64,000 nucleotides of DNA from an uncultured Gemmatimonadaceae bacterium (GTDB lineage Bacteria; Gemmatimonadota; Gemmatimonadetes; Gemmatimonadales; Gemmatimonadaceae): positions 422,886 through 486,885 of the forward strand of contig CAWAGQ010000007.1 of NCBI GenBank assembly GCA_963781585.1. The letters are read 5' to 3'. Below, in pieces: positions 21,734 to 35,855 of the stretch (position 1 is the first letter of the stretch; every line of letters starts with the position of its first letter). The translations under genes were made by a program, and so were the position numbers. The notes beneath the pieces were generated by a model. It saw only the letters and a list, made by a program, of their open reading frames with translations, did not search any database and was not told the DNA's origin.

Positions 21734-21951
21734 TCTCCTTGAATGCGGCGTGATGCCATCGATGTCAATGAATCCGGGTCCTGGCGCGGGATCACCGGCA
21801 GGACCACGTGCGACGGATGCGCGGCGTCGTGCACCAGCCGCTGATGCGCCACCACGAACGTACGGTCGCGCTCGTCGTTCCCTCCGGTGTTCAGGTTGCG
21901 ATCGTACTTGGGGAGGAACGCCGACGACATCGTGACCCGGATCCGATGCCC
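21730..21951 (-). pseudogene. Duplicated 3' end of the CocE/NonD hydrolase gene (31664..33745)
   Basis: 21785-21951 aligns ungapped to 31668-31834 (about 19 mismatches in 167 bp by manual count); encodes PKYDRNLNTG...HPSHVVLPV. Confidence 0.85.
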
Positions 21952-22165
21952 CTACCGGGACTGTGCCCGCTGGACTGCGCTCGGACCGATCTCCCGTTCC
22001 TCCAATCCCCGACAGCGGGTAAGGAATCCCTATGGACACGGAGACCAGCATCGGCGATTTTGCGGCTTTGGCCGGCTAAATTGCCGCCGACGCGACGTAC
22101 CGGCCAACTCACTGGCGAGGTGATCAATCAACGTGATGCGCATCGGCGAGATCGGGGGCTGATCG

Positions 22166-22636
22166 GTGGCGATACGCGACACGACGGAGCCGATCAGCGG
22201 GCCTCGAGCCTGGGCCCCGAGCTTCGGTGAGTACCTGCTCGGCGGCCTGCTGGTCCTCATGGCGGCGATCGCGCTGCTGGTGGTCTTTCTCTACTGGCTG
22301 CCACCGGAACAGCTCCAGCTCCCCGAGCTGCAACCGGCGTTGCGTGTCGGGTCCGTCGGCTCATTCCCGGTGGGCGCCGGACGCAGCGTGCGCTGGGGCG
22401 ATCAGGTGATCCTCGTCGTGCGACCGGACACGGGCCGGTTTACCGCGCTCGAGGGCGTCGCCTCGACCGATGGGTGCCTCCTCGAGTGGTCGCCGACGGC
22501 CCTCCGCATCGAATCGCCGTGCAGCTACATCGTCTACGACCTGCACGGCAACGTCGTGCGTGGGCTCACCACCGTGCCGCTCAGACGCTACCCAACGTTC
22601 GTGCGTGACGACGTCCTCTACGTCGGGAGGCCATGA
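22166..22636 (+). CDS. Rieske-fold membrane-anchored protein lacking [2Fe-2S] ligands
   Basis: N-terminal TM; ASTDGC and SPCSYIVYDLHG align to CTHLGC and CPCHGSxYD; lies directly before cytochrome b. Confidence 0.8.
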   Translation: MAIRDTTEPISGPRAWAPSFGEYLLGGLLVLMAAIALLVVFLYWLPPEQLQLPELQPALRVGSVGSFPVGAGRSVRWGDQVILVVRPDTGRFTALEGVASTDGCLLEWSPTALRIESPCSYIVYDLHGNVVRGLTTVPLRRYPTFVRDDVLYVGRP

Positions 22637-22637
22637 C

Positions 22638-23882
22638 ATGTCGACCTCCGCAGGTGGGCGTGGGCCTTCGTGGACGCAACGCCTGTGGGCCGACGTCGCC
22701 GCGAGCACCGATGCGAGCGTGCTCGCTGTTCTCCGCTTCCTCGGCCTCCTTTACGGCCCCATCGACACCAGGCTTCCGATTGATCAGGCCTTCCGCAAGG
22801 CATTGCACAATCGTGTCCCACGTCACGTCAGCTGGCGCCACGCCTTCGGCGGCATCACCTATCTCCTCTTCGTAATCCTCGTTGGCACAGGGGTCCTGCT
22901 CTCGCTCTACTACCGCCCGTCGGCCCAGGAAGCGTACCAGAGCGTACAGCATATCGTCTCGGGGATCTCGTTCGGCTGGCTGATGCGCGATCTCCACAGC
23001 TGGAGCGCCAACCTCGTTGTTCTCGCGGCGCTCGTGCACATGGCGCGCGTGTTCTTCAGCGGCGCCTACAAGCCGCCGCGCGAGACGAACTGGCTGGTCG
23101 GCCTGCTGCTGTTGTTCGTGATCTTCGCGTTCGGCGCCACCGGCTACCTGCTTCCCTGGGACCAGTGGGCCTACTGGACGACCACGCAGGGTCTCCTGGT
23201 CGTCGGCCATCTCCCGGTCATCGGCGGCTGGGCGACCAGCGTGCTGCGCGGCGATCCACTCGTTTCCGGAGCGACGCTGAGCCGCTTCTTCGCGCTGCAC
23301 GTGATCGTGCTGCCGTGGATCGCACTCGGCCTGCTCGTGCTGCACTTCCAACTGCTTCGCAAGCACGGCGTCGCCGGGCCGCACGACGAGGACAGGCTCG
23401 TCGTGTCGCCGAGCGATTCCAGCACACGGGACGGTGTGCCGTTTTTCCCCGTCCATCTCCTCCGCTCAATCAGCGTCGCCGTGCTCGTCGTCGCGGTCGC
23501 GGTCACCGCCGCTGTACTGCATCCGCGCGATGTGGCGCCGCCGGCCGACGCGAGCCATCCGCCCGCTGAGCTGTACGCCACGTGGGTCGTCGCGGATGTC
23601 TCGCGCGCGCTCTTCTACTACCTCGGCCCGTGGGGCTTCGGCGCCTTCCTGCTCCTTGGCATCGTGCTGATGACGCTGCCGCTGTTCGATCGGGCCCCCG
23701 AACGGCGCTTGCGCCGCCGTCCGCTCGTCGCAGGACTCGGCATCGCATTCTTCCTCGGGTTCGCGGTGGCGTGGGGCGCAGGATGGCGTCTGCGGACGGC
23801 GCCGAGCTCCGGCGAGCTCGGGTCTCTGGTCCTTCCCGCGGGCCCCGTGGATTCGCTGCCCACCGCTCGCACACCGAAATGA
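22638..23882 (+). CDS. Cytochrome b (b6 plus subunit-IV-like fused) of a Rieske/cytb-type complex
   Basis: RDLHSW...VHMARVF, GAYKPPRETNW, TGYLLPWDQ, RFFALH...LH heme ligands; PEWY replaced by ATWV. Confidence 0.92.
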   Translation: MSTSAGGRGPSWTQRLWADVAASTDASVLAVLRFLGLLYGPIDTRLPIDQAFRKALHNRVPRHVSWRHAFGGITYLLFVILVGTGVLLSLYYRPSAQEAYQSVQHIVSGISFGWLMRDLHSWSANLVVLAALVHMARVFFSGAYKPPRETNWLVGLLLLFVIFAFGATGYLLPWDQWAYWTTTQGLLVVGHLPVIGGWATSVLRGDPLVSGATLSRFFALHVIVLPWIALGLLVLHFQLLRKHGVAGPHDEDRLVVSPSDSSTRDGVPFFPVHLLRSISVAVLVVAVAVTAAVLHPRDVAPPADASHPPAELYATWVVADVSRALFYYLGPWGFGAFLLLGIVLMTLPLFDRAPERRLRRRPLVAGLGIAFFLGFAVAWGAGWRLRTAPSSGELGSLVLPAGPVDSLPTARTPK

Positions 23883-25132
23883 GCCGCCCCACGACGCTCG
23901 GCCCCCTGCTGCTCGCGAGCGCCATCGCACTCGGCCTCGCGGTGCAATCGAGCGCGCTCACCGCGCAGCAGTCCCCCACGTCCGCGCCGAATCGCTGCCT
24001 CACCTGCCATGCCGCAGAGCGCGAGGCCGCGACGGTCGGCGTGCACTCCGACAACGGCGTGCAGTGCGTCGAATGCCACGGCGGCAACGCCGCGGCGTCC
24101 CAGCTTCCCGCGGCCCACGGCAACGGCTTTACGGGGCACCTCGACAAGATCGCGACGGCGCGGCTCTGCGGGTCGTGCCACTCCGATCCGAACAAGATGC
24201 GCGAGTACGGCCTGAACACCGCCGAACTCGCGGAGTATCGCACCAGCCGGCATGGGCAGCTCCTGTTCGACCGGCACGATGCGAACGCGCCGACGTGCAC
24301 CGACTGCCATGGCACGCACGTCATCTATCCGCCCTACGATGCGCGCAGCAAGGTGTACCCGACGAACATCCCCGGCACTTGCGCGCACTGTCATGCCGAC
24401 GCGAAGCTGATGGCGAAGTACCAGATCCGCACGGACCAGCTCGAGCAGTTCACCGCCAGCGCCCACGGCCTGGCGCTTTTCCAGAAGCGGGATTTCGCGG
24501 CGCCGACGTGCGTGTCCTGTCATGGCGCGCATTCCGCGCTCCCGCCTACGCATACCCAGGTGGCGAGCGTGTGTGGAAACTGTCATCAGCTCGTGGCGAC
24601 CGCGTTCAATACGGGGCCGCATGGCGCCGCCACGCGGTCGGGACGGCTCAAGGGCTGCCTCGGCTGCCACACCAACCACGGTACGCAGCGCGTGGCCGAC
24701 GACAGCATCGCGCGTACGTGCGATCGCTGCCACGCGGGCGACTCGCGACTGCACCAGACCGCGGTCGATCTCCAGCACCGGATGACCCAGGCGACGCTCG
24801 ACCTGCGGTCGGCGCGCCGTGCCGTCGACCGCCTGACGGTAACCGGCCACCCTGCGACCGACGCGCGGTTCCGGTATCAATCCACGCTGACCGACTACCT
24901 GCAGATTGCGCAGATACAGCACGGGCTCGACCTCGACGGAGTGGAGCGGCTCGAGGGGCGCGTGAGCGCCGGCTCGATCGAGCTCGATCGCATGGCGACG
25001 GCGAGTGAGGAATCGCGCTGGGAACACAAGCTTATCCTCCTGCCCGTCTGGTTCCTGTCGCTCTCCGCCGTCGCGCTCGCGTGGCTTGCGCTGCGGTCGC
25101 TGCGCAGCGACACGCGGGACGCAGAGTCGTAG
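23879..25132 (+). CDS. Nonaheme cytochrome c with C-terminal membrane anchor
   Basis: Signal peptide, 9 CxxCH, helical region, C-terminal TM; ATGA overlap with cytochrome b. Confidence 0.92.
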   Translation: MSRPTTLGPLLLASAIALGLAVQSSALTAQQSPTSAPNRCLTCHAAEREAATVGVHSDNGVQCVECHGGNAAASQLPAAHGNGFTGHLDKIATARLCGSCHSDPNKMREYGLNTAELAEYRTSRHGQLLFDRHDANAPTCTDCHGTHVIYPPYDARSKVYPTNIPGTCAHCHADAKLMAKYQIRTDQLEQFTASAHGLALFQKRDFAAPTCVSCHGAHSALPPTHTQVASVCGNCHQLVATAFNTGPHGAATRSGRLKGCLGCHTNHGTQRVADDSIARTCDRCHAGDSRLHQTAVDLQHRMTQATLDLRSARRAVDRLTVTGHPATDARFRYQSTLTDYLQIAQIQHGLDLDGVERLEGRVSAGSIELDRMATASEESRWEHKLILLPVWFLSLSAVALAWLALRSLRSDTRDAES

Positions 25133-25135
25133 GAC

Positions 25136-27190
25136 ATGTCACCGACGGCCCGCCGCCGGCTCTCGCGCACCGCGAAGGTCGCGGTGCCAATCGCCATCCT
25201 CGGCATCGTTCTGCTCGTTGTCGGGACGGCGGGCTTCGTAGAAGTCTCGAGCCAGCCGTGGTTCTGCGGCAGTTGCCACATCATGCAGCCGTACCACGCG
25301 TCCTGGGAGAAGTCGACGCACCGCGACGTGCCGTGCATCAAGTGCCACATCGCACCCGGCATCAAAGCCGAGGCGATGACCAAGATCCAGGCCGCCAACA
25401 TGGTGGTGAAGGACCTCACCGGGGCGGTGAACGGGCGTCCGTGGGCCAAGATCGAGGACGCGTCGTGCCTGCGTTCGGGCTGCCACTCGACACGGCTCAT
25501 CCAGGGAGAGGTCGAGTACAAGGGCGTACGCTTCGACCACGCGGCGCACCTCGGCCAGGTCCGCCGCGGCATCCAGCTTCATTGCACGAGTTGTCATTCG
25601 CAGATCGTGCAGGGCTCGCACATCGCGGTCACCGAGGGCACCTGCGTGCTCTGCCACTTCAAGGGACGTCCGGTCGACAAGCCGGTGGCGACGTGCACTG
25701 GCTGTCACCCGTCGCCGCCGCGCGTGACGTCAAAAGAAGGGTTTGTCGTCGACCATCCGTCGTTCGTGAAGGACAGGATCGACTGTCTGTCGTGCCACAG
25801 CGAGGTGACGCAGGGCGCGGGCGAGGCCGACCCCGAGCGGTGCGTGAGCTGCCACAACGAGCCGCAGAAGCTGGCGCAGATGAACGATGCGTCGATGCTG
25901 CACCGCGTGCACGTGGGCCAGGAAACCATCGCGTGCGTGCAGTGCCACACCACGATGCAGCACCGCATCGTGGCGCTCACCACCACGCCGCAGCTCGATT
26001 GCAAGGCGTGTCACAGCAACGTGCACCTCGCCCAGCAGAAGCTCTACGCCGGGGTGGGCGGGTATCTGTCGCGGCTGCAAGCCGGCACGTCCACCGAGCT
26101 GGAAGCGGCGCACGCGGCGACGATACCCAGCTCCATGTTCCAGGCACGCGTCTCGTGCGTTGGGTGTCACAACGACGCGTCACGCTTGCCCGGCCACGAC
26201 ACCGTGCAGGTCGCCAACGGCGCATCCTGCATGTCGTGCCACGGCGTGCGCTACGCGAACGTGCTCCCGAGCTGGCAGCGAGGCATGGAGCGCAAGGTGG
26301 CGCTCGTCGATCCGGTCGTGCAGGATGCGATGGCGGCTGCCAGGTCGCTGCCGGTGGGCCGACGGGCGCGCGCCGACAGCCTGCTGGGTCAGGCCGCCGA
26401 CAATGTTGCGCTCGTGCGTGCCGGCAAGGGCGTGCACAACATCATCTACGCCGATCAGCTGCTCCGCAGTGCACTCGATCTCGTGCGGCAGGCGACGAGG
26501 GACGCGCAGGTCCCGTATCGCGCGCCAGGCGTGGATCTCGGACCGCCGGTGACCGAGAACCAGTGCCTCCAGTGCCACATGGGCGTCGAGGCGCAGCAGG
26601 CCCCGTTTGCCGACCGCACGTTCAGCCACGAGCCGCACGTGGTCCGGGCTGGACTCCAGTGCGGCATGTGTCACACGTCATTCGCGAACCATGGCGGCAC
26701 GCTGCTCACGTCCGCGGCGAGCTGCGACAACTGTCATCACAACCCGGTACCGTCGCCGACGCGCAACTGCGCGCAGTGCCACCCGGGCCCGGGCGGGGCG
26801 CCGACCGACACGCTGCGTCGCTCGCAAGGCGATTTTACGCACGCGCGGCACGTCGCGGCGAATGTGCAGTGTGCCGCGTGCCACGAAGCGCCGACGATGA
26901 CGGCCAAGGCGCTCAATTGCGATGGATGTCACGCGCAGCACCATCAAGTGCAGGACGCGTGTCTCTCCTGTCATCGCGGGGGCGCGCTCGCGAAGCACAG
27001 TCTCTCGACGGCGCACGCAGCCTGCTCCGGGTGCCACAAGACGGTGCCGGCGATCAACCAGTGGACGCGGCAGGTGTGCACAGCGTGCCACGCGGCACAG
27101 ACCACGCACAAGCCCGGCGGCGCGTGCGAAACGTGCCACCGTGTGCCGCCCATGGCCGCGGCCGCCAGACGCCCGGGCAACCTGCATTAG
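25136..27190 (+). CDS. Large multiheme cytochrome c with NapC/NirT-like N-terminus (21 CxxCH plus 1 CxxxxCH)
   Basis: N-terminal TM, FCGSCHIM, SWEKSTH, CIKCH; 22 heme-binding motifs counted. Confidence 0.92.
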   Translation: MSPTARRRLSRTAKVAVPIAILGIVLLVVGTAGFVEVSSQPWFCGSCHIMQPYHASWEKSTHRDVPCIKCHIAPGIKAEAMTKIQAANMVVKDLTGAVNGRPWAKIEDASCLRSGCHSTRLIQGEVEYKGVRFDHAAHLGQVRRGIQLHCTSCHSQIVQGSHIAVTEGTCVLCHFKGRPVDKPVATCTGCHPSPPRVTSKEGFVVDHPSFVKDRIDCLSCHSEVTQGAGEADPERCVSCHNEPQKLAQMNDASMLHRVHVGQETIACVQCHTTMQHRIVALTTTPQLDCKACHSNVHLAQQKLYAGVGGYLSRLQAGTSTELEAAHAATIPSSMFQARVSCVGCHNDASRLPGHDTVQVANGASCMSCHGVRYANVLPSWQRGMERKVALVDPVVQDAMAAARSLPVGRRARADSLLGQAADNVALVRAGKGVHNIIYADQLLRSALDLVRQATRDAQVPYRAPGVDLGPPVTENQCLQCHMGVEAQQAPFADRTFSHEPHVVRAGLQCGMCHTSFANHGGTLLTSAASCDNCHHNPVPSPTRNCAQCHPGPGGAPTDTLRRSQGDFTHARHVAANVQCAACHEAPTMTAKALNCDGCHAQHHQVQDACLSCHRGGALAKHSLSTAHAACSGCHKTVPAINQWTRQVCTACHAAQTTHKPGGACETCHRVPPMAAAARRPGNLH

Positions 27191-27282
27191 CGAACGCGCG
27201 AGCCGGGAGTGCAGGCGCCGGTCAGAGATCGCCGGCGGAGTTCGAGGACGAGATCCCCCGAAGAGGCCTGAACGGCCGACCC

Positions 27283-28644
27283 TCAGCGAATTCCGAGAAT
27301 CTTCTTCTGCAGCTCGGCCGGGGTGCTCTGCATGTGGCAGGTGGAGCACTCGCGGCCGCGCATGTGATCGGCCTGCGCGGCGTGGCAGAGAACGCAGAAG
27401 CTCCGATCCGGCATGAGCAGCGACAGCGTTGCCCGCGCGTGGCAGTCCGTGCAGGTCAGATGGTTGCTGAGCAGGTGCGATCCGCGAACGTCCGGGCCAT
27501 GGCAGCGGGCACAGTCGGCCGCCTGCTGGTGGTGCTGGGCGTGACAGTCGTTGCACGCCACGACACTTGCCACGTTCGTCCCGGGCGCATGACAGTCGGC
27601 GCATTGGAGCGAGCCATGCTGCGCATGCTCGAATGCCACGGCGCGCGCGGCCGGCGCGTCCGGCGGCGTTAGGCGCATGGTGAGCGTCAGGCGGATCGGT
27701 CCGGCGAGCCGGGCATCGTTGCCGTGACACGTCGCACAGCTCGCCCGCGGGGTGGCCGCGTGGTGACACGCCGAGCACGACGACGACGTCACCATGGTCC
27801 GCCCGTGCCGCGGATCGACCGTGAGCTCTCCGGCCCGGGCGGTAGGGGTCCCGCGTCCCACGCCCCGTCCCTGCCTCACGAAGTAGTCCACCGCGCCATG
27901 GCACTCGGTGCACTGCACCTCGCCCCGCACCACGTGCAGGCCGTGGGCGAACGACTGCCCGAATACGGAGTCGCGGCGGCCCTCGATGCCGTAGTGACAC
28001 GTGAGACACGACACATTCGCCACACTCGGACCCAGCGCTGGCCGCGGTGGTGCCGTCACGCGCGCCGCGGTGTAGGCCGCGGTGGCGCTATCGAGGGCGG
28101 CACGCAGCAAGCCATCGGCGCCGTGGATGTTGTGCAAGCCGTTCGCCGCCGCGATCGCCGCCAGCGTCCGCTGCGCGGCACGGATCTCGCCACGTGCCAC
28201 GGACGATCCCGCCAGACGCGAATCGCCTGCCGCGCCCTGCACGTAGTCGGCCACGACGCGGGAGCGCCATTCGAGGCCGGAATTCCACCGGGTCAGCATG
28301 CCGGCGAACCGGGTCCCGTGACAGGTCGTGCATACGCGATCCATCGCCGCGATCCGCCTCGAGGCCGGTGCGCTGTCGACCGCCGGAGTGTGGCACTCGG
28401 CGCACCGAACTCTCGCCGTGAACATCGGATCGGGGGAGAGCCGGAGATTCGCCGTCGTGCCGGCATAGAACGCGCCCGAGACGCTGTCGCGCGCTGCGGT
28501 CTGGCCGCGCGCCTGCCCAGTTCCGCCCTGCGCTGCCAGCGTGCTCCCCGCAACGCCGAGCAGCACGCTGCTACCGAGCAACATGAGACCGCGGGCGATC
28601 CGACGTGCGGGATCGTCGAAACGCCGACGCCCGCGCGCGTTCAT
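27283..28644 (-). CDS. Dodecaheme periplasmic cytochrome c
   Basis: Signal peptide, 12 CxxCH; paralogous to the C-terminal half of 25136..27190. Confidence 0.9.
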   Translation of the reverse strand: MNARGRRRFDDPARRIARGLMLLGSSVLLGVAGSTLAAQGGTGQARGQTAARDSVSGAFYAGTTANLRLSPDPMFTARVRCAECHTPAVDSAPASRRIAAMDRVCTTCHGTRFAGMLTRWNSGLEWRSRVVADYVQGAAGDSRLAGSSVARGEIRAAQRTLAAIAAANGLHNIHGADGLLRAALDSATAAYTAARVTAPPRPALGPSVANVSCLTCHYGIEGRRDSVFGQSFAHGLHVVRGEVQCTECHGAVDYFVRQGRGVGRGTPTARAGELTVDPRHGRTMVTSSSCSACHHAATPRASCATCHGNDARLAGPIRLTLTMRLTPPDAPAARAVAFEHAQHGSLQCADCHAPGTNVASVVACNDCHAQHHQQAADCARCHGPDVRGSHLLSNHLTCTDCHARATLSLLMPDRSFCVLCHAAQADHMRGRECSTCHMQSTPAELQKKILGIR

Positions 28645-29552
28645 CCCGTCAGTACCGCGTAGACGACCAGGCCGATAACACTCAGCCCCACCAGCAACGC
28701 CGCAAACCCGAGCCACACCGCCGTCAGATACGCCGTGCGCGACGGTGCCGGAACGTACAGCTGCTCGAGCCGGCCCTCCTTCACGTTGCGCTCGTACTCG
28801 AGTGGATGCTCCTCCTCGACGTACTCGGCGCGTGCGCGGCCCGTGAAGATCACCAGATCGATGGGAAACTTCTCCGGCCGCAGATGGACGTTGAAGAAGT
28901 GGACCGTGAAGATGAACCCGAGCGCGAGCAGTGCCTCATCGCCGTGCACAACGGTCGCGACGTTGAACATCCATCCAGGCAGGAAGCGCGAGAAGAACGT
29001 CGGGAGCCAGAGCAGCAGCCCCGAGCCGCCGATGATGGCAACGCCCCAGAACACGCCGAAGTAGTCGAACTTCTCCATGTAGCTGAAGCGGTCGAACCTG
29101 GGCCTCGGACCCACGCCGAGGAACCACTTGAACTGCGCGATGACGTCCTTGATGTCTTTCGGCTGCGGCACCATCGATTCGGGACCCCAGAAGATCGACG
29201 ACTTCTTCTCGGCCCGCATGAGCTTTCTGACGAGGGTCACGAGATGCAGGCCGAAGTAGCCGAACGTGATCATTGCACAGAAGCGGTGCACCGCGCCTGC
29301 CACCTGGGCACCGCCGAGCATGCGCATGAGTGGCGCCGCCCACGGCGCCGCGGAGAAACGCAGGGGCACACCGGTGATTACCAGGACCATGAAAGACACT
29401 ATCACGAGCGCATGCGTGATGCGCTGTATTGGACTGAACCGACGGATGTACGGGCCGGTCCCCCGATCTGACACCGAGAGCGGCTTGCCCTCGGGAACCG
29501 GGCCCGGAACCGGAATGGCCTCACCGGCGGAGTGAACCGATTCGTTCGTCAT
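28641..29552 (-). CDS. FdnI/HydC-type diheme cytochrome b (CbcL C-terminal-like)
   Basis: RRFSPIQRITH, VHRFCA, RFSYMEKFDY.GVFWG, VHGDEALLA, VHFFNVHLRP; ATGA overlaps at both ends. Confidence 0.88.
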   Translation of the reverse strand: MTNESVHSAGEAIPVPGPVPEGKPLSVSDRGTGPYIRRFSPIQRITHALVIVSFMVLVITGVPLRFSAAPWAAPLMRMLGGAQVAGAVHRFCAMITFGYFGLHLVTLVRKLMRAEKKSSIFWGPESMVPQPKDIKDVIAQFKWFLGVGPRPRFDRFSYMEKFDYFGVFWGVAIIGGSGLLLWLPTFFSRFLPGWMFNVATVVHGDEALLALGFIFTVHFFNVHLRPEKFPIDLVIFTGRARAEYVEEEHPLEYERNVKEGRLEQLYVPAPSRTAYLTAVWLGFAALLVGLSVIGLVVYAVLTG

Positions 29553-31006
29553 GACTGATCTCCATCGCCGGCGCGTGACAGTGCCCCTTCGTCGGCCGGC
29601 GAACCTGGCGTGCTGCCACCGCCACTCGGTCCGCCATCGTCGCCATGATCGCCGCGGTCCTCGCGCCCGGCTCCGCGCACGCGATCGATTGCCAGACGCA
29701 CCAGCCAGAGCGCGGTGTGCAATCCGAAGAAACTGAAGATGCTGACGAGCAGCGTCGTCATGAACAGCCAGACCCAGAAGAGCCCCGGGTTCTTCGCGTG
29801 GTCCTGCGGGTCGGCGTGCGGCATGTACTGCACGAACTTCGCGTTTGCGCTGGCGTGACACCTGCCGCAGGTTTCGACGAGGTTTGCCTTGTTCACCGAC
29901 GAGTGCGGGTCGCTGGGCGGCAGCATCGCGTGCGCCGTATGGCAGTCGCTGCACTTGGCGGTGATCCCGAACCCGAGGGCTGTGACCTGTCCGTGATAAG
30001 TCTCGAAATACGTCTTCGTGACTCGCTCGTGGCACGAGCCGCATTCCCAGACCACACCGCGGAACCAGGCGGAGTCCCTGGCGGACACGATCTTGTGGCC
30101 GGCATGGCAGTCGGTGCACACCGGCGCTTCGTGTCCGGTGTCCGTCTTCTTGCCGGAGATGAGCGCCATGCCGTGCGACGACGAGTCGAATGTGGTGACC
30201 ACACCGGCATGACACGCGCCGCACGTCTTCGGCACGTTGGCGCGGCTGAGCCTTGATCCCGCGGAATCGGCCGGCAGGATCAGATGCGCCCCATGGCAGT
30301 CGCTGCACGTGGCGGCCACGACGAGCCCCGATTTGGTCGCCGCGAGGCCATGCACCGTCTGGTAATACTCGGCGACCGCGGTCCGCGCCTGCGCCTCCTG
30401 CGGGTTGTCCGGGTTCTTGAAGTACGTGCCGATGATCCGCTTGTCGCCGTGACACGTCGCGCACGTCTTCGCCACGTTGAGCGGATACGTCGGCGAACGG
30501 GGGTCGTCGGATCCCAGGACATGGTGCTGCGTGTGGCACGTCACGCATGTCGGCGCGTCGCCAACGGTCTGGGCGTTCCTGGCATGGATCGACGCGGCCC
30601 AGTCCGCGCCCTCCTGCTGGTGACACTTCTGGCAGGGCACGGCCACGATCGAGGTGTTGTGCGGGTAGCCCTGGTCGTAGCCGGGGTGGCAGTCGGCGCA
30701 GGCGAGCCTGGCGTGCTTCGAGTCGCGGAGCACCGAGTCGGGAACGAGGAGCGCGGAGTCGGAGTGCGTCGGCGTGCCTTTGCCAACCAGGAAATCGTGA
30801 CTGGCGTGACACTTCTCGCACTGCACGACCCTCTGCGCCGCCGTGTGAGCCGGAATGGGCGGTGCGACGGCGGGAGTGGGTCGGGCCCGCCCTGGTCGCT
30901 GGGCGCCGAGTGGCGATGGCATCAGTCCGGCAACCACAATCGCGAGCCACGCGACGGCGGCGCTCGAGGCCGCGATTGCCCAGCGTGGCCGCGGAACGCA
31001 TCTCAT
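29549..31006 (-). CDS. Undecaheme cytochrome c with C-terminal TM (CbcL N-terminal-like)
   Basis: Signal peptide, 11 CxxCH, C-terminal FFGLHTALWLVR helix. Confidence 0.9.
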   Translation of the reverse strand: MRCVPRPRWAIAASSAAVAWLAIVVAGLMPSPLGAQRPGRARPTPAVAPPIPAHTAAQRVVQCEKCHASHDFLVGKGTPTHSDSALLVPDSVLRDSKHARLACADCHPGYDQGYPHNTSIVAVPCQKCHQQEGADWAASIHARNAQTVGDAPTCVTCHTQHHVLGSDDPRSPTYPLNVAKTCATCHGDKRIIGTYFKNPDNPQEAQARTAVAEYYQTVHGLAATKSGLVVAATCSDCHGAHLILPADSAGSRLSRANVPKTCGACHAGVVTTFDSSSHGMALISGKKTDTGHEAPVCTDCHAGHKIVSARDSAWFRGVVWECGSCHERVTKTYFETYHGQVTALGFGITAKCSDCHTAHAMLPPSDPHSSVNKANLVETCGRCHASANAKFVQYMPHADPQDHAKNPGLFWVWLFMTTLLVSIFSFFGLHTALWLVRLAIDRVRGAGREDRGDHGDDGGPSGGGSTPGSPADEGALSRAGDGDQS

Positions 31007-31663
31007 GGTAATCACCTGTCCGTCGGGTGACGAGTTCCGGCGCCCTGTCGCGGTCGCTTCTCGCGGCTCATCGACACCAGCGCCCGCGCCGCAGTGACGC
31101 ACCCAGAACTGTCATGTGCGAACGAAGGAACAGCCGGTCGTAATGATATGCGGGCATGGCCGGTGTCCACGGCGAGGGCTCGTGGCAGGCCGAACCAGGA
31201 CGGGCATCCGCCTGCTCCGCTGCAGCGGACATGCCGTCACGGGCTCGGGAGCCACCGCGTGGTTTGTGGTCAGCGCATCCCGCGCCGCCGCGACGCGGGC
31301 CTTGCCGAATCGGACTTCGGGCTGGCGGTCCGTCCGCCAGTTCGCAGCGAGCATGACCGGCGCGCAGAGAGGGAACGGCGGGGGACGTCGAAACAATGCC
31401 GACAATCATGACCTCGCGGTCGGAGCCGTCTGTCTAAAGCATTAACGAGTTCACTTGTGGCGACCGTCGGGACAAGGCGCCGAACACCCTGCGAGCCGTC
31501 AGCCAATCCCGCACAGCGTCAGTGGCCGAAGTCTACAGGAAAACCGGACCGGCGCCATGGAAGCGGCCCGTATGCGAGTTGCAGTCCACAGCCGCCGGCG
31601 CGCGCGGCCCCGGGATGGCCCTTGATGGGACGTCGCTCGATCGGCGTCAATGCAACCTGCGCC

Positions 31664-33745
31664 CTACCGCGGTACCACCGGCAGGACCACGTGCGACGGA
31701 TGCGCCGCATCATGCACCAGCCGCTGATGCGCGACCACGAACGTGCTGTCGCGCTCGTTGTTCGCTCCGGTATTCAGATTGCGATCGTACTTGGGGAACA
31801 GCGCCGACGACACCGTGACGCGGATGCGATGGCCGGGCTCGAACACGCGTGACGTGAACCAGAGGTCCACGTCGTAGCGCTCGACCTGTCCGGGGGTGAG
31901 CGGCACCTCACGGCCGTACCCCTTCCGGAACCGCGCCCGCACCAGGCCGTCCTGCACCCGTTGGGCATGGCCATCGGGGAAGACGTCGAGCAGCATCAGA
32001 TCCCAGTCGGTGTCCCTTGCATCGGTTGCCGCCCACAGTGTGGCGGACATCTGGCCGGTCACCTCGATTGCGTTCGTCAGCGGCTTCGACGTGAAGACCA
32101 GCTCGTCGTGTCGCGCCGCGTTCACGGTCGTGTAATCCTCATTCAGCGACGTCTCGAGCTCGCGCGAGTCGATCAGGAACGGCGTGGGATTCGCCGGATC
32201 GTAGGTGAACGTGTCCACCGCGGCGCCAGTCGGCGGAATCGTGTCCAGCACACCGTCGCCGCCGCTGCTGTTCGCGAGGCCACCGGACGCCAGATACCAG
32301 TTGGTGGGAACCGCCCGCGCCAGCGGCCAGCCGGTCTCCTTGCGCCACGCGTTGTCGCCGATGACGAAGATGTCCAGCGGCGGCTCCCGGTCCACGCCGT
32401 TGTCCCTGCCCAGCAGATAGTGATCGAACCAGCGGAGCTGGAGGCGCCGCGTGTCCACGCGAGCTTGCGGTCCGAACTCGCCGGCCACGTAGTCGATGCC
32501 CCGATGCGCTCCGGGTCCCATCACGAGCCGGATGAACGGATGCCCCGGCACCTTGTTGAGCGCGTTGGTGTAGTCGATCGGCCCGCGCGAATCGTCGTAC
32601 CACCCCGAGATCTGCAGCACCGGCGCTCGCACTCTCGCGATGTTCGTCGTCACCGCATGCGCGCGCCAGTACGCGTCGAGACTGGGGTGCGCGATCCATC
32701 GATCCCACAGCTTTACGTTGCCGCATTGCAGTCGTTGCGGCAGGTCGCTCAGCGGCAGGTGTGCAAGCTCGGCGCCGATGTCGAGGTCGCTGATGTTCTG
32801 CATCGTGCGCGCGCGCATCAGGCACGCCCAGGCGACGTTGATCGGCGAGAAGACCATGTCCTCGTACGGCACGATGCGCCACGGGTCGCCGGTCGCGGCC
32901 GAGGGGGCGATCGCGGCGAGATGGGGCGGCGCGCTCACCGCGGCATACCACGCCAGCCGTCCTTCGTCGGAGTGTCCGATGAGGCCGACCTTCCCGTTCG
33001 CGTCAGGCAGGCGCGCCGCCCACTCGACGGCGTCGTAGCTGTCCTGCACGTCGGTGTCGTAGTCGCCGAAGTCGTTCCCGTCCGACACGTCGCGGCCGCG
33101 CACGTGCTGCGCCACGAAGATGTATCCGCGCGACGCCCAGTACCGGCCCGCCGGATGCAGGATACGCGTGTACGGCGTGCGCTGGAGGACCACACCGAAC
33201 GGTCCCGTGCCAACGGGGCGCGCGATGTAGCTGGCCAGGCGCGCGCCGTCGCGCGTGGTCATGAACACCAGCGTGTCTTCGGTGATCGCGTATGCCGAGT
33301 CGGACACCGGTCCCGGCCACGGCGTGTAGGGCTGTTCCACGACGAACGGCGTGAGGCGCGGCTCGAGCCGGATGCGGCGGCCGGACGGCTTGCCTCCCGA
33401 CAGCATCACGCCGACAAGTGTGTCGCCGCGCCAGGCGGCGGCGATGGCCTGATCGTCAGGGCCGCTCAAGGTCACCGAGTCAGCGTTCGACGCGACACGT
33501 GTGACATCGAGGATCGGTTCACCGGTACGCCGGCGAATCGCGCCCACAACACCGGAGTCGCTTTCCGCGAACTGCGCAAACCCCATACGCCGCCACCCCT
33601 CGAATCCGGCATTCGGAGTCGACCCGTTCACCAGATAGGCGTCCCAGTCGCCGGCGAGCGTCGGCGCACTGTTGGTCCGGCTGCAGGCGGCGACGTTGGC
33701 GGCAGCGAGCACGGCGCACACCTGCGGGAGGACGGAGCGCATCAT
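31664..33745 (-). CDS. CocE/NonD family hydrolase (lipoprotein)
   Basis: TRDGARLA, QRTPY, RGR..SDG, SGWYD, PepX_C-like C-terminus FPKYDRNLNTG; VAAC lipobox. Confidence 0.92.
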   Translation of the reverse strand: MMRSVLPQVCAVLAAANVAACSRTNSAPTLAGDWDAYLVNGSTPNAGFEGWRRMGFAQFAESDSGVVGAIRRRTGEPILDVTRVASNADSVTLSGPDDQAIAAAWRGDTLVGVMLSGGKPSGRRIRLEPRLTPFVVEQPYTPWPGPVSDSAYAITEDTLVFMTTRDGARLASYIARPVGTGPFGVVLQRTPYTRILHPAGRYWASRGYIFVAQHVRGRDVSDGNDFGDYDTDVQDSYDAVEWAARLPDANGKVGLIGHSDEGRLAWYAAVSAPPHLAAIAPSAATGDPWRIVPYEDMVFSPINVAWACLMRARTMQNISDLDIGAELAHLPLSDLPQRLQCGNVKLWDRWIAHPSLDAYWRAHAVTTNIARVRAPVLQISGWYDDSRGPIDYTNALNKVPGHPFIRLVMGPGAHRGIDYVAGEFGPQARVDTRRLQLRWFDHYLLGRDNGVDREPPLDIFVIGDNAWRKETGWPLARAVPTNWYLASGGLANSSGGDGVLDTIPPTGAAVDTFTYDPANPTPFLIDSRELETSLNEDYTTVNAARHDELVFTSKPLTNAIEVTGQMSATLWAATDARDTDWDLMLLDVFPDGHAQRVQDGLVRARFRKGYGREVPLTPGQVERYDVDLWFTSRVFEPGHRIRVTVSSALFPKYDRNLNTGANNERDSTFVVAHQRLVHDAAHPSHVVLPVVPR

Positions 33746-34125
33746 TGCTGTACCTGGGGGCGCTTCTTCCACGCCACTGCGAACAGAATCACGAAGACCG
33801 CCTCACAGACAAGAGATGCGACGCCTGCCGGCTCGAGCCAGGCGTCCGGTTCAGCGGGAAGCCCCGGCAAGCCGATGGTGCGACTTGCTACATACGCCAG
33901 GAAGGCACCGCCTGCTACCAGGAGGCCCAACAGCCATCCCAGCGTGCGCTGATTGCGATGAATGCCGATCGCCGCGATGAGCGCAGCGACAGCATTGCCG
34001 ACAAAGAGCAGACCCTTGTACGTAGCCTCGCCGAAGGAGTCTTGCGCTTCCAGGGCGTGGATAAGGCCCGTCCCGAGGATTGCCGCGATGGCAAGCCACT
34101 TCACGGCCGGGGCAGTCGTCGACAT
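33742..34125 (-). CDS. Small integral membrane protein
   Basis: About 4 hydrophobic segments, SRTIGLPG motif; overlaps the cocE start. Confidence 0.75.
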   Translation of the reverse strand: MSTTAPAVKWLAIAAILGTGLIHALEAQDSFGEATYKGLLFVGNAVAALIAAIGIHRNQRTLGWLLGLLVAGGAFLAYVASRTIGLPGLPAEPDAWLEPAGVASLVCEAVFVILFAVAWKKRPQVQQ

Positions 34126-34376: not shown

Positions 34377-35855
34377 ATGCGCGTCCTCCTCGTCTCACCC
34401 GAGTTCCCCGATACCTTCTGGAGTTTCCGGCACGCGCTGCCCTTCATCCGGCGCAAGGCGTCGTTTCCACCGCTCGGGCTGCTGACAGTGGCCGCGCTGC
34501 TCCCGGCCGAATGGGAGAAGCGGCTCGCGGACCTCAACGTTTCGGCGCTGTCGCAGGACGATCTGGCGTGGGCGGACTACGTCTTTGTCGGTGCCATGGT
34601 CGCGCAGCGGACGTCGGCGCGCGAGGTGATCGCGCGCAGCCGGGCCGCCGGTGTGCCAATCGTCGCCGGTGGCCCGCTCTTCACCGGTGAGCCTGAGGCG
34701 TTTCCCGACGTCGATCACCTCGTGCTCGGCGAGGCCGAGGTGACGTTGCCGCGGTTTCTCGAGGACCTGGCGCGCGGCACCCCGCAGCGCGTCTACACCT
34801 CCACAGAGTTCGCCGACCTGCAGAGCACGCCGATACCGCTCTGGGAGCTTGCGGACCTCAGACGCTACGCGTCGGTCAGTCTGCAGTTCTGCCGCGGCTG
34901 TCCCTATGACTGCGAGTTCTGCAACGTCACCGCGATGCTGGGACACCGGCCGCGCACCAAGCCGATCGCCGCGGTGATCGCGGAACTGGACCGGCTCGAA
35001 TCGTTAGGCTGGCGTGGCTCGGTGTTCTTCGTCGACGACAACCTGATCGGCAACAAGCGCCTGGTGAAGGAGCGCCTCCTGCCGGCGCTGGTCGACTGGC
35101 GACGGGACAAGCAGCTGGGGCCGTTCTACAGCCAGGTCTCGCTGAACGTGGCCGACGATCCCTCGCTGCTCGCCCTGATGTCGAAGGCCGGTTTCGACTC
35201 CGTCTTTGTGGGTATCGAGACTCCCGACGAGGATGCGCTCGCGGAGTGCAACAAGAAGCAGAACCTGGGTCGGGACCTGGTCGCCGACGTCAAGCGCGTG
35301 CAACGAGCGGGGATCGAGGTCACCGCGGGATTCATCGTCGGCTTCGACAACGACACGGCGGCCACCTTTCAGCGGCAGTTCGACTTCATTCAGCGGAGCG
35401 GCATCGTCACGGCGATGATCGGCCTGCTGCAGGCGCCGGCCGGTACGCGGCTCCACGCGCGGATGGAGCGCGAGGGGCGGTTGCTCGGCGCCATGACCGG
35501 CGACAACTCGGATGGAACGACTAACATCGTGCCGGCCATGACCCTCGAGATTCTCCGGGAGCGCTACCGGGCGCTCATTCGCGGGATCTATTCGCCGCGC
35601 CAGTACTATCGCCGCGTGCGCACCTTTCTGCGCGAGTACAAGCCGCCGGTGGTGGCGCCGTCGATGGAGTGGCAGCGCGTGTTCGCGGGCGCACGATCGG
35701 CCGTTCGGCTCGGCATCGTGGGCCGGGAGCGCATGCACTACTGGGGTCTGATGCTCTGGACGCTGGTGAGGCGGCCGCGGCACCTGCCGCGTGCGATCAC
35801 CCTCGCGATCTACGGCTATCATTTCCGCCGCGTGAGCGAGCTGCACATTCAGTAG
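34377..35855 (+). CDS. B12-binding radical SAM protein (DUF4070-type C-terminus)
   Basis: PPLGLLTVA and IVAGGP B12-binding region; CPYDCEFC; FFVDDN, FVGIET. Confidence 0.92.
   Translation: MRVLLVSPEFPDTFWSFRHALPFIRRKASFPPLGLLTVAALLPAEWEKRLADLNVSALSQDDLAWADYVFVGAMVAQRTSAREVIARSRAAGVPIVAGGPLFTGEPEAFPDVDHLVLGEAEVTLPRFLEDLARGTPQRVYTSTEFADLQSTPIPLWELADLRRYASVSLQFCRGCPYDCEFCNVTAMLGHRPRTKPIAAVIAELDRLESLGWRGSVFFVDDNLIGNKRLVKERLLPALVDWRRDKQLGPFYSQVSLNVADDPSLLALMSKAGFDSVFVGIETPDEDALAECNKKQNLGRDLVADVKRVQRAGIEVTAGFIVGFDNDTAATFQRQFDFIQRSGIVTAMIGLLQAPAGTRLHARMEREGRLLGAMTGDNSDGTTNIVPAMTLEILRERYRALIRGIYSPRQYYRRVRTFLREYKPPVVAPSMEWQRVFAGARSAVRLGIVGRERMHYWGLMLWTLVRRPRHLPRAITLAIYGYHFRRVSELHIQ

Follow-up and report, generated by a model that had tools for sequence, protein, structure and literature searches.

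Ligand loss in a Rieske-fold protein

Can a cytochrome b complex retain a Rieske subunit after all ligands of its iron-sulfur cluster have been replaced? This question is raised by a gene in a stretch of 64,000 nucleotides from an uncultured Gemmatimonadaceae soil bacterium (GenBank assembly GCA_963781585.1, contig CAWAGQ010000007.1, positions 422,886 to 486,885, forward strand). The whole stretch is referred to below as the window, and positions are counted from its first nucleotide. In Rieske/cytochrome b complexes, the Cys and His residues at four positions in two sequence boxes ligate the [2Fe-2S] cluster. A preliminary description of the window had proposed that the gene encodes a protein lacking all four of them, a cofactor-less structural "pseudo-Rieske" in a repurposed complex. 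The analysis presented here indicates that the protein almost certainly carries no Rieske-type cluster and that it is very probably a conserved, functional subunit of a cytochrome b complex. The gene and its two boxes are located as follows:

22166 (GTG) to 22636 (TGA), plus strand: Rieske-fold subunit of 156 amino acids, predicted to be cluster-less (open reading frame, AlphaFold2, Foldseek)
22457 to 22477, plus strand: former box 1 (canonical CxHxGC), here V-A-S-T-D-G-C, residues 98-104
22514 to 22537, plus strand: former box 2 (canonical CPCHGSxY), here S-P-C-S-Y-I-V-Y, residues 117-124

Both boxes have the sequence and the position given in the preliminary description. Box 1 is encoded by gtc gcc tcg acc gat ggg tgc and box 2 by tcg ccg tgc agc tac atc gtc tac. 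When a profile of the family was aligned to solved Rieske proteins, Ala99 (GCC) fell on the position of the box-1 Cys ligand and Thr101 (ACC) on that of the box-1 His, while Ser117 (TCG) and Ser120 (AGC) took the places of the box-2 Cys and His ligands. A BLASTP alignment to the canonical Rieske protein of the same genome gave the same ligand mapping. This confirms the proposed replacement of all four ligands (Cys to Ala, His to Thr, Cys to Ser and His to Ser). In the profile alignment, Cys104 and Cys119 correspond to the two disulfide cysteines and Tyr124 to the conserved Tyr of box 2; the two cysteines are thus kept, as had been claimed, and by homology they presumably form a disulfide in the window protein as well. 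The open reading frame is intact, and the protein consists of a transmembrane helix (residues 20-44, the predicted membrane anchor), a conserved linker ELQPA and a Rieske-fold head (residues ~58-156). A single base separates its stop codon (22634-22636) from the ATG of a cytochrome b gene (22638), in agreement with the preliminary description.

Ligand loss is conserved across the family

The replacements were traced in two sets of homologs. A word-based protein search yielded 124 proteins at E<=0.001 among 308 candidates, of which 120 are listed; the organism names given for these 120 metagenome homologs are all from Gemmatimonadota. Canonical boxes occur in 0/120 of the listed homologs, and exactly two Cys are located beyond residue 60 in 120/120. 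The genomic ortholog set (n=68) comprised the window and 67 loci from a scan with one genome per species. None of these 68 orthologs, which range down to 45% identity, keeps any of the cluster ligands. At position 99, 45 sequences have Ser and 23 have Ala, whereas at position 117 all 68 have Ser. His never occurs at position 101, nor at position 120, which holds Ser, Thr or another residue. Cys104, Cys119 and Tyr124 are each present in 68/68 orthologs, Asp102 in 66/68 (the remaining two have Glu) and Asp125 in 67/68. As the same replacements are found in every ortholog and every listed metagenome homolog, neither chance nor a read artefact accounts for them; a single indel had already been dismissed in the preliminary description.

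A shifted or alternative set of [2Fe-2S] ligands was also considered. The head contains exactly two Cys in 67/68 orthologs and no His at all in 20/68, so that no alternative Rieske-type ligand set is possible, and this candidate was ruled out.

When 1.84 billion representatives were searched with a profile, 704 matches were obtained at E<=0.001. Ordered by score, these consist of a ligand-less top group, followed by a gap and then by ordinary Rieske proteins with CxH/CxCH boxes. In a tree of 150 head domains, from which the four ligand columns were left out, the 39 family rows form one clade with a Shimodaira-Hasegawa-like approximate likelihood ratio test (SH-aLRT) value of 89. A more divergent family branch of 143 amino acids also carries Gemmatimonadota labels; its members are named "nitrite reductase small subunit" or "ubiquinol-cytochrome c reductase iron-sulfur subunit" at NCBI. 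The gene is present in 42/401 sampled Gemmatimonadota genomes from 27/148 genera. Of twelve family codes, six yielded the gene and six did not, f7 (0/70) being among the latter.

Of the labels attached to the 67 loci, 66 are gemmatimonad and one is Steroidobacteraceae. The latter locus (L026) is a 7.2-kb low-coverage contig with a full Gemmatimonadota-type operon and probably represents a binning error rather than a transfer.

Partial ligand loss was observed in other Rieske-like groups (P0140, P0146, P0149, P0166, P0193, P0208, P0210, P0163, P0200, P0234, P0238, P0204). One partial-loss group has both His replaced (CPRTGC / CPCDY), another has Ser instead of the first box-2 Cys (SPCH), and a 216-residue form with an extra N-terminal domain keeps CPCH and has Tyr, Phe, Thr or other residues in place of the box-1 His. 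In a soluble Rieske-like protein of 106 amino acids nearly all ligands are lost.

Fold and homology

The window protein and 33 of the 120 listed homologs were combined in one alignment, which was used for profile searches and structure prediction. The profile matches solved b6f-type Rieske proteins, with the soluble domain from Chlorobaculum tepidum (8hn2_A) as the best match (E 3.3e-12). AlphaFold2 predicted the N-terminal helix and a beta-rich head with a mean pLDDT (predicted local distance difference test) of 88. A Foldseek comparison with the PDB again placed 8hn2_A first (E 2.1e-8, target-normalised TM-score 0.82, root mean square deviation (rmsd) 1.4 A over 98 columns), and among the matches listed only Rieske-type folds occur. 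With VIA-align, Z values of 16.1 to 8hn2_A and of ~15 to Rieske ferredoxins (rmsd 1.5-1.6 A over ~100 residues) were obtained; the values for the NirD structures 4aiv and 2jo6 were 13.6 and 12.8. A Rieske fold, which the preliminary description had left to structure prediction, is therefore predicted with high confidence. On the strength of the profile, AlphaFold2, Foldseek and VIA-align results, the window protein has the predicted fold and the homology of a respiratory Rieske subunit.

Models of canonical Rieske proteins gave little or no match. Pfam assigned no family to the open reading frame at E<=1, and a search of the whole genome with PF00355 found six other genes but not this one. The NCBIfam PetC models scored 24.7 bits, below their cut-offs of 154 and 250. 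The window protein is not classed as a Rieske iron-sulfur protein, because the ligands, the curated score thresholds and the export motif described below all fail.

Two Pfam Rieske matches (loci L005 and L006) lie on the same strand of G000 contig C4 (1095522-1096303, minus strand), about 400 bases apart. They are possibly a tandem pair of Rieske-domain proteins, and no cytochrome b gene adjoins them.

Purifying selection

Nei-Gojobori dN/dS (the ratio of nonsynonymous to synonymous substitution rates), computed for the 68 coding sequences, was used to assess selection. Values for the 25 closest pairs lie at 0.06-0.23, and the median is 0.32 over the 2105 pairs with dS between 0.05 and 1.5, where dS near saturation in many pairs inflates the ratio. 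The head has a median of 0.28 and the former cluster loops (residues 95-135) one of 0.185. The latter also show the highest mean top-residue frequency of any segment, 0.81 compared with 0.69 in the basal sheets. All four TCN codons are used for Ser117, and both TGC and TGT for Cys104 and Cys119; the residues are therefore kept while the codons drift. With dN/dS well below 1, the gene is under purifying selection, an outcome in favour of the preliminary description.

Loss of the export motif

Rieske proteins use the twin-arginine translocation (Tat) pathway because their cluster is inserted before export. For comparison of the export signals, 270 proteins were aligned to the family profile. Among canonical relatives with a residue at the aligned positions 17 and 18, Arg is found in 36/38 and 41/44 sequences, respectively, and x-F-L comes next. 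The family has x-(P/A)-G-F at the same positions, with RR in just 2/133 members, and the N-terminal region of the window protein contains no twin-arginine motif. This loss fits a head without cofactor, which could be exported unfolded.

The partner cytochrome b

The gene that follows encodes a cytochrome b with a replaced quinol-oxidation (Qo) motif:

22638 to 23882, plus strand: b6-like long cytochrome b of 414 amino acids, with b6 and subunit-IV parts fused (PF00033, 5.3e-47)
23577 to 23588, plus strand: position of the Qo "PEWY" motif, here A-T-W-V, residues 314-317 (HMMER, MAFFT)

The protein matches solved b6 in the PDB at E about 1e-53. The His ligands of both b haems (H120, H134, H221 and H236, spaced by 13 and 14 residues) are present in 63/63 orthologs. 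Residue 69, at the position of Cys35 of b6, the residue to which haem ci is attached in b6, is Ala in the window and is not Cys in any of the 63 orthologs.

The placement of ATWV at the PEWY position comes from HMMER alignments with cytochrome b of Aquifex and subunit IV of spinach, and it is reproduced when MAFFT aligns the protein with the genome's canonical cytochrome b. The motif reads (S/T/A)(T/S)W(V/I) in 63/63 orthologs. As a control, 30 other Gemmatimonadota cytochrome b loci were fetched, 28 of which cover the region; 25 have PEWY, one has PDWY and two have a family-type motif (TSWI/ATWI). These two are the genes linked to a pseudo-Rieske in two other genomes. Described Qo motifs are PEWY, PDWY, PVWY, PPWF, APWY, GPWY, PAWY and PDWF (Kao and Hunte, PMC4122944). 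None of the variants listed in that source lacks both the Pro and the final aromatic residue, which are both lost in the window family.

The cytochrome b proteins linked to a pseudo-Rieske form one clade on a long stem (0.92 changes per site, SH-aLRT 100), which is separate from the canonical short type and from a type of roughly 490 amino acids. Among loci L076-L105, three well-separated clades of Gemmatimonadota cytochrome b are seen, the short type (PEWY), the ~490-residue type (PEWY) and the pseudo-Rieske-linked type. Eight genomes in a subsample of 61 harbor the pseudo-Rieske gene, and all eight have at least one other cytochrome b gene, which in several of them is located 7-22 kb from the pseudo-Rieske-linked one.

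A canonical paralogous complex in the same genome

The whole genome contains two PF00033 cytochrome b genes. The second one is located on the same contig (C7) about 404 kb upstream (loci L003 and L074) and belongs to a gene set with the order 9-haem cytochrome c (with a C-terminal anchor), Rieske protein, cytochrome b. Its Rieske protein has CTHLGC and CACHNG boxes and an RKKF N-terminus, and its cytochrome b has PEWY. All three subunits are paralogous to window genes: the Rieske proteins share 27% identity (E 3e-14), the cytochromes b 36% (E 3e-48) and the 9-haem cytochromes 32% over 407 amino acids (E 1e-63). However, the canonical complex differs from that of the window in its gene order, in the absence of a 21-haem cytochrome and in the retention of the cluster ligands and PEWY. 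Because all three subunits have such counterparts, the window complex is best read as an old, rewired copy of the Rieske/cytochrome b/multihaem complex of the phylum.

Genomic neighbourhood

Downstream of cytochrome b, the window encodes two multihaem cytochromes on the same strand and then a convergent unit:

23879 to 25132, plus strand: 9-haem c-type cytochrome of 417 amino acids with 9 CxxCH motifs, a signal peptide and a C-terminal transmembrane helix
25136 to 27190, plus strand: 21-haem c-type cytochrome of 684 amino acids with 21 CxxCH motifs, an N-terminal transmembrane helix and an NrfH/NapC-like quinol-dehydrogenase head
27283 to 31102, minus strand: convergent unit of the following three genes
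31102 to 29549, minus strand: 11-haem cytochrome c
about 29540 to 28641, minus strand: FdnI/HydC-like dihaem cytochrome b
28716 to 27283, minus strand: 12-haem cytochrome c

The cytochrome b gene directly follows the pseudo-Rieske gene in 67/67 loci. Homologs with the same neighbourhood lack the ligands without exception, as the hypothesis of an established cluster-free subunit predicts. The 9-haem gene, whose ATG overlaps the cytochrome b stop codon (ATGA), is found downstream in 59/67 loci and the 21-haem gene in 58/67; loci without them end at or just past cytochrome b. The head of the 21-haem protein is colinear with NrfH (2j7a_C) over residues 13-116 (E 4.9e-6), with a CxxCHxM motif at Cys44, and the protein matches TIGR03153 at 1.8e-13. 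A scan of positions 21900-27400 for promoters and terminators found no promoter-like site and just intragenic terminator-like matches, and is uninformative.

A homolog of the FdnI-like cytochrome b lies inside the fetched flank in 41/67 loci, mostly directly downstream and on the same strand. Most other loci have the 11-haem gene and the FdnI-like cytochrome b gene directly downstream of the 21-haem gene. Since the 11-haem and FdnI-like genes usually directly follow the 21-haem gene, the two b-type modules look functionally linked. The convergent unit may resemble a split form of Geobacter CbcL. Two further genes flank the cytochrome island with no evident link to it, one for an X-Pro dipeptidyl peptidase (31664-33772, minus strand) and one for a B12-binding radical SAM protein with DUF4070 (34377-35855, plus strand).

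Interpretation and alternative explanations

The best explanation, which we consider probable, is a cofactor-less, structural Rieske-fold subunit of an old paralogous bc-type complex that does not perform a Q cycle. Bifurcated quinol oxidation at the Qo site needs the cluster as first electron acceptor and the His ligand of the cluster as hydrogen-bond partner. Because the ligands, the Tat motif and PEWY are all changed, a Q cycle with bifurcation onto a Rieske cluster would not be possible, and the complex probably cannot work by the textbook Q cycle. It is likely that the head is purely structural and holds no new cofactor. The pseudo-Rieske postulated in the preliminary description is thus supported by the fold, the conserved ligand loss and the purifying selection. 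The repurposing of the complex, also postulated there, receives independent support from the loss of PEWY in all 63 cytochrome b orthologs, the loss of the Tat motif and the presence of a canonical paralogous complex in the genome.

A transmembrane wire is put forward tentatively as the mechanism of such a complex. In the window paralog, the cluster ligands and the Tat motif were lost and the PEWY motif of the Qo site was replaced, three changes that go together. The head would be exported unfolded and would receive its disulfide in the periplasm. Stabilised by this retained disulfide, it would serve as a fixed lid or brace on the P (positive) side of cytochrome b, and the 9-haem cytochrome might dock onto it as well. 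Cytochrome b, which retains both haems and has a b6-like N (negative) side, would act as a two-haem transmembrane wire that joins a quinone site to a periplasmic chain of 9 + 21 haems, and the NrfH-like head of the 21-haem cytochrome would provide a second, independent quinol site. Taken as a whole, the proposal of a natural derivative without the bifurcating Qo reaction, with a b-haem wire from a quinone site to 30 periplasmic c-haems and a head that is a fixed lid or docking piece, is possible but doubtful. In its boldest form, the Cys104/Cys119 pair or a docked c-haem may have taken over the redox role of the lost cluster.

Several observations weigh against a purely structural subunit in a complex without Qo chemistry. 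The fold of the window protein is a prediction. The P side of its cytochrome b is not degenerate: neither LPWDQxxYW nor the AB loop varies, and a new conserved motif, P-x-x-L-x-S-T-W-V-V-x-D-V-S-R, is present in the ef loop, with Asp320 in 59/63 and Arg323 in 48/63 orthologs. Given these conserved loops and the new motif, the chances that the P-side quinone site still works in a remodelled form and that it is dead are about equal. A new small cofactor or a redox-active pair of Cys would likewise agree with how strongly Asp102, Cys104, Ser117, Cys119, Asp125 and the former cluster loops are conserved. Among the public runs searched, no RNA run contained the operon. Two soil-metagenome runs from one study share only 0.08 and 0.05 of the sampled words of the operon in their reads, and their contigs leave out positions 22442-23467 and hence the ligand codons.

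The alternative that fares best is a haem-for-cluster swap, in which menaquinol is still oxidised at the remodelled P-side pocket and the [2Fe-2S] cluster has been replaced as first acceptor by a c-type haem, belonging to the 9- or the 21-haem cytochrome and kept in position by the head of the pseudo-Rieske. It would account for the conserved P-side loops with their new ef-loop motif as well as for the strongly conserved tip of the pseudo-Rieske, and the 9-haem cytochrome is an intact paralog of the electron-accepting cytochrome of the canonical complex. However, there is no structural evidence for a haem near the pocket, and the 21-haem cytochrome already has an NrfH-type quinol site of its own. 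In addition, the known Qo variants listed by Kao and Hunte (PMC4122944) keep the Pro and an aromatic residue, both lost here. We regard this swap as unlikely.

Less probable still is that the former cluster site holds another redox centre and that the subunit has remained an electron carrier. Such a centre could be a Cys104/Cys119 dithiol/disulfide next to the remodelled Qo pocket, or a single metal bound by the Cys pair together with Asp102, Asp125 and Ser117. All of these residues are invariant or nearly so in the 68 orthologs, and no part of the protein is more constrained than the former cluster loops. Yet no His is conserved, 20/68 heads having none, and Asp125 is, like Tyr124, common in canonical boxes too, so that no new role is needed to explain it. 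The loss of the Tat motif speaks against a cofactor inserted in the cytoplasm. Moreover, in respiratory Rieske proteins these two Cys are joined in a structural disulfide, as depicted in the figures of one report (PMC12954380).

It is very improbable that the protein is no subunit of a cytochrome b complex at all but a separate factor facing the periplasm, such as a chaperone-like or assembly protein that acts on multihaem cytochromes or, in the manner of NirD, the partner of some other enzyme. Rieske folds that have no cluster and serve other partners do exist, the NirD structures align well with the predicted fold, and some records name family members "nitrite reductase small subunit". Nevertheless, the best solved match and most of the listed matches are b6f-type Rieske proteins and not NirD, and the protein has the N-terminal transmembrane anchor of respiratory Rieske proteins. 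Its gene precedes cytochrome b by one base in the window and directly in every locus, and it co-varies with the loss of PEWY in the adjoining cytochrome b. Recent decay of a Rieske gene or an error of sequencing or assembly has a negligible probability and is refuted by the family-wide ligand loss in sequences from several sources, the intact frame, the low dN/dS and the occurrence in many genera.

Comparison with known systems

Among solved structures, the nearest relatives are b6f-type ("green clade") Rieske proteins, namely those of C. tepidum (8hn2) and Kuenenia (kuste4569, 9rk4) and cyanobacterial PetC. The window protein shares with them the fold (Z 16.1; 26-28% identity), the N-terminal transmembrane anchor, the disulfide cysteine pair, the box-2 Tyr and a gene position adjoining a b6-like cytochrome b. 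Unlike them, it has all four ligands replaced, lacks the twin-arginine motif and scores below every curated cut-off.

Two proteins from other contexts offer a further comparison. NirD, the small subunit of assimilatory nitrite reductase (4aiv, 2jo6), has a Rieske-type fold that is not known to carry a [2Fe-2S] cluster, and the same holds for plant and algal PSB33/TEF5, a "Rieske-like" photosystem II factor. NirD is soluble and cytoplasmic and partners NirB, whereas the window protein is membrane-anchored and has cytochromes rather than nirB as neighbours. A precomputed PF13806 (Rieske_2) mark is found in 1/120 listed homologs; the window protein has no Pfam match. Neither NirD nor PSB33 is encoded with, or homologous in sequence to, a subunit of a cytochrome b complex.

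The nearest described arrangement is a Geobacter gene cluster, in which a b6-like cytochrome b and a Rieske-type gene form a core among large multihaem cytochromes; it comprises the cytochrome b GSU2932 (ExtP), the Rieske gene GSU2933 and the 10- and 12-haem cytochromes GSU2934/2935 (PMC2825233). However, Geobacter belongs to a different phylum, and its Rieske-type protein is called a Rieske Fe-S protein in that account. On the NCBIfam model for ExtP the window cytochrome b reaches 219 bits, short of the cut-off of 290, and is not a member. No report of a cluster-less Rieske subunit inside a cytochrome b complex was found in the searchable literature, which does not cover most subscription journals.

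Implications

The Q cycle depends on the Rieske cluster and on the Qo site of cytochrome b, and these two are regarded as a functional core that does not vary in any bc1/b6f-type complex. A conserved and selected family with a cluster-free Rieske subunit and a replaced Qo motif is a natural experiment on the capabilities of the remaining scaffold. It raises the questions of how the Rieske head matters for the structure, whether a plain transmembrane wire is a role that cytochrome b can take on, and how an ancestor of complex III became rewired to multihaem cytochromes. If the transmembrane-wire reading is true, the complex would represent a new class of quinone-linked module that exchanges electrons with extracytoplasmic donors or acceptors. 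In the databases, members of the family currently appear as "hypothetical protein", "nitrite reductase small subunit" or "ubiquinol-cytochrome c reductase iron-sulfur subunit". Because of these names, a complex that does not run a Q cycle may be counted as one that does when the metabolism of soil Gemmatimonadota is reconstructed.

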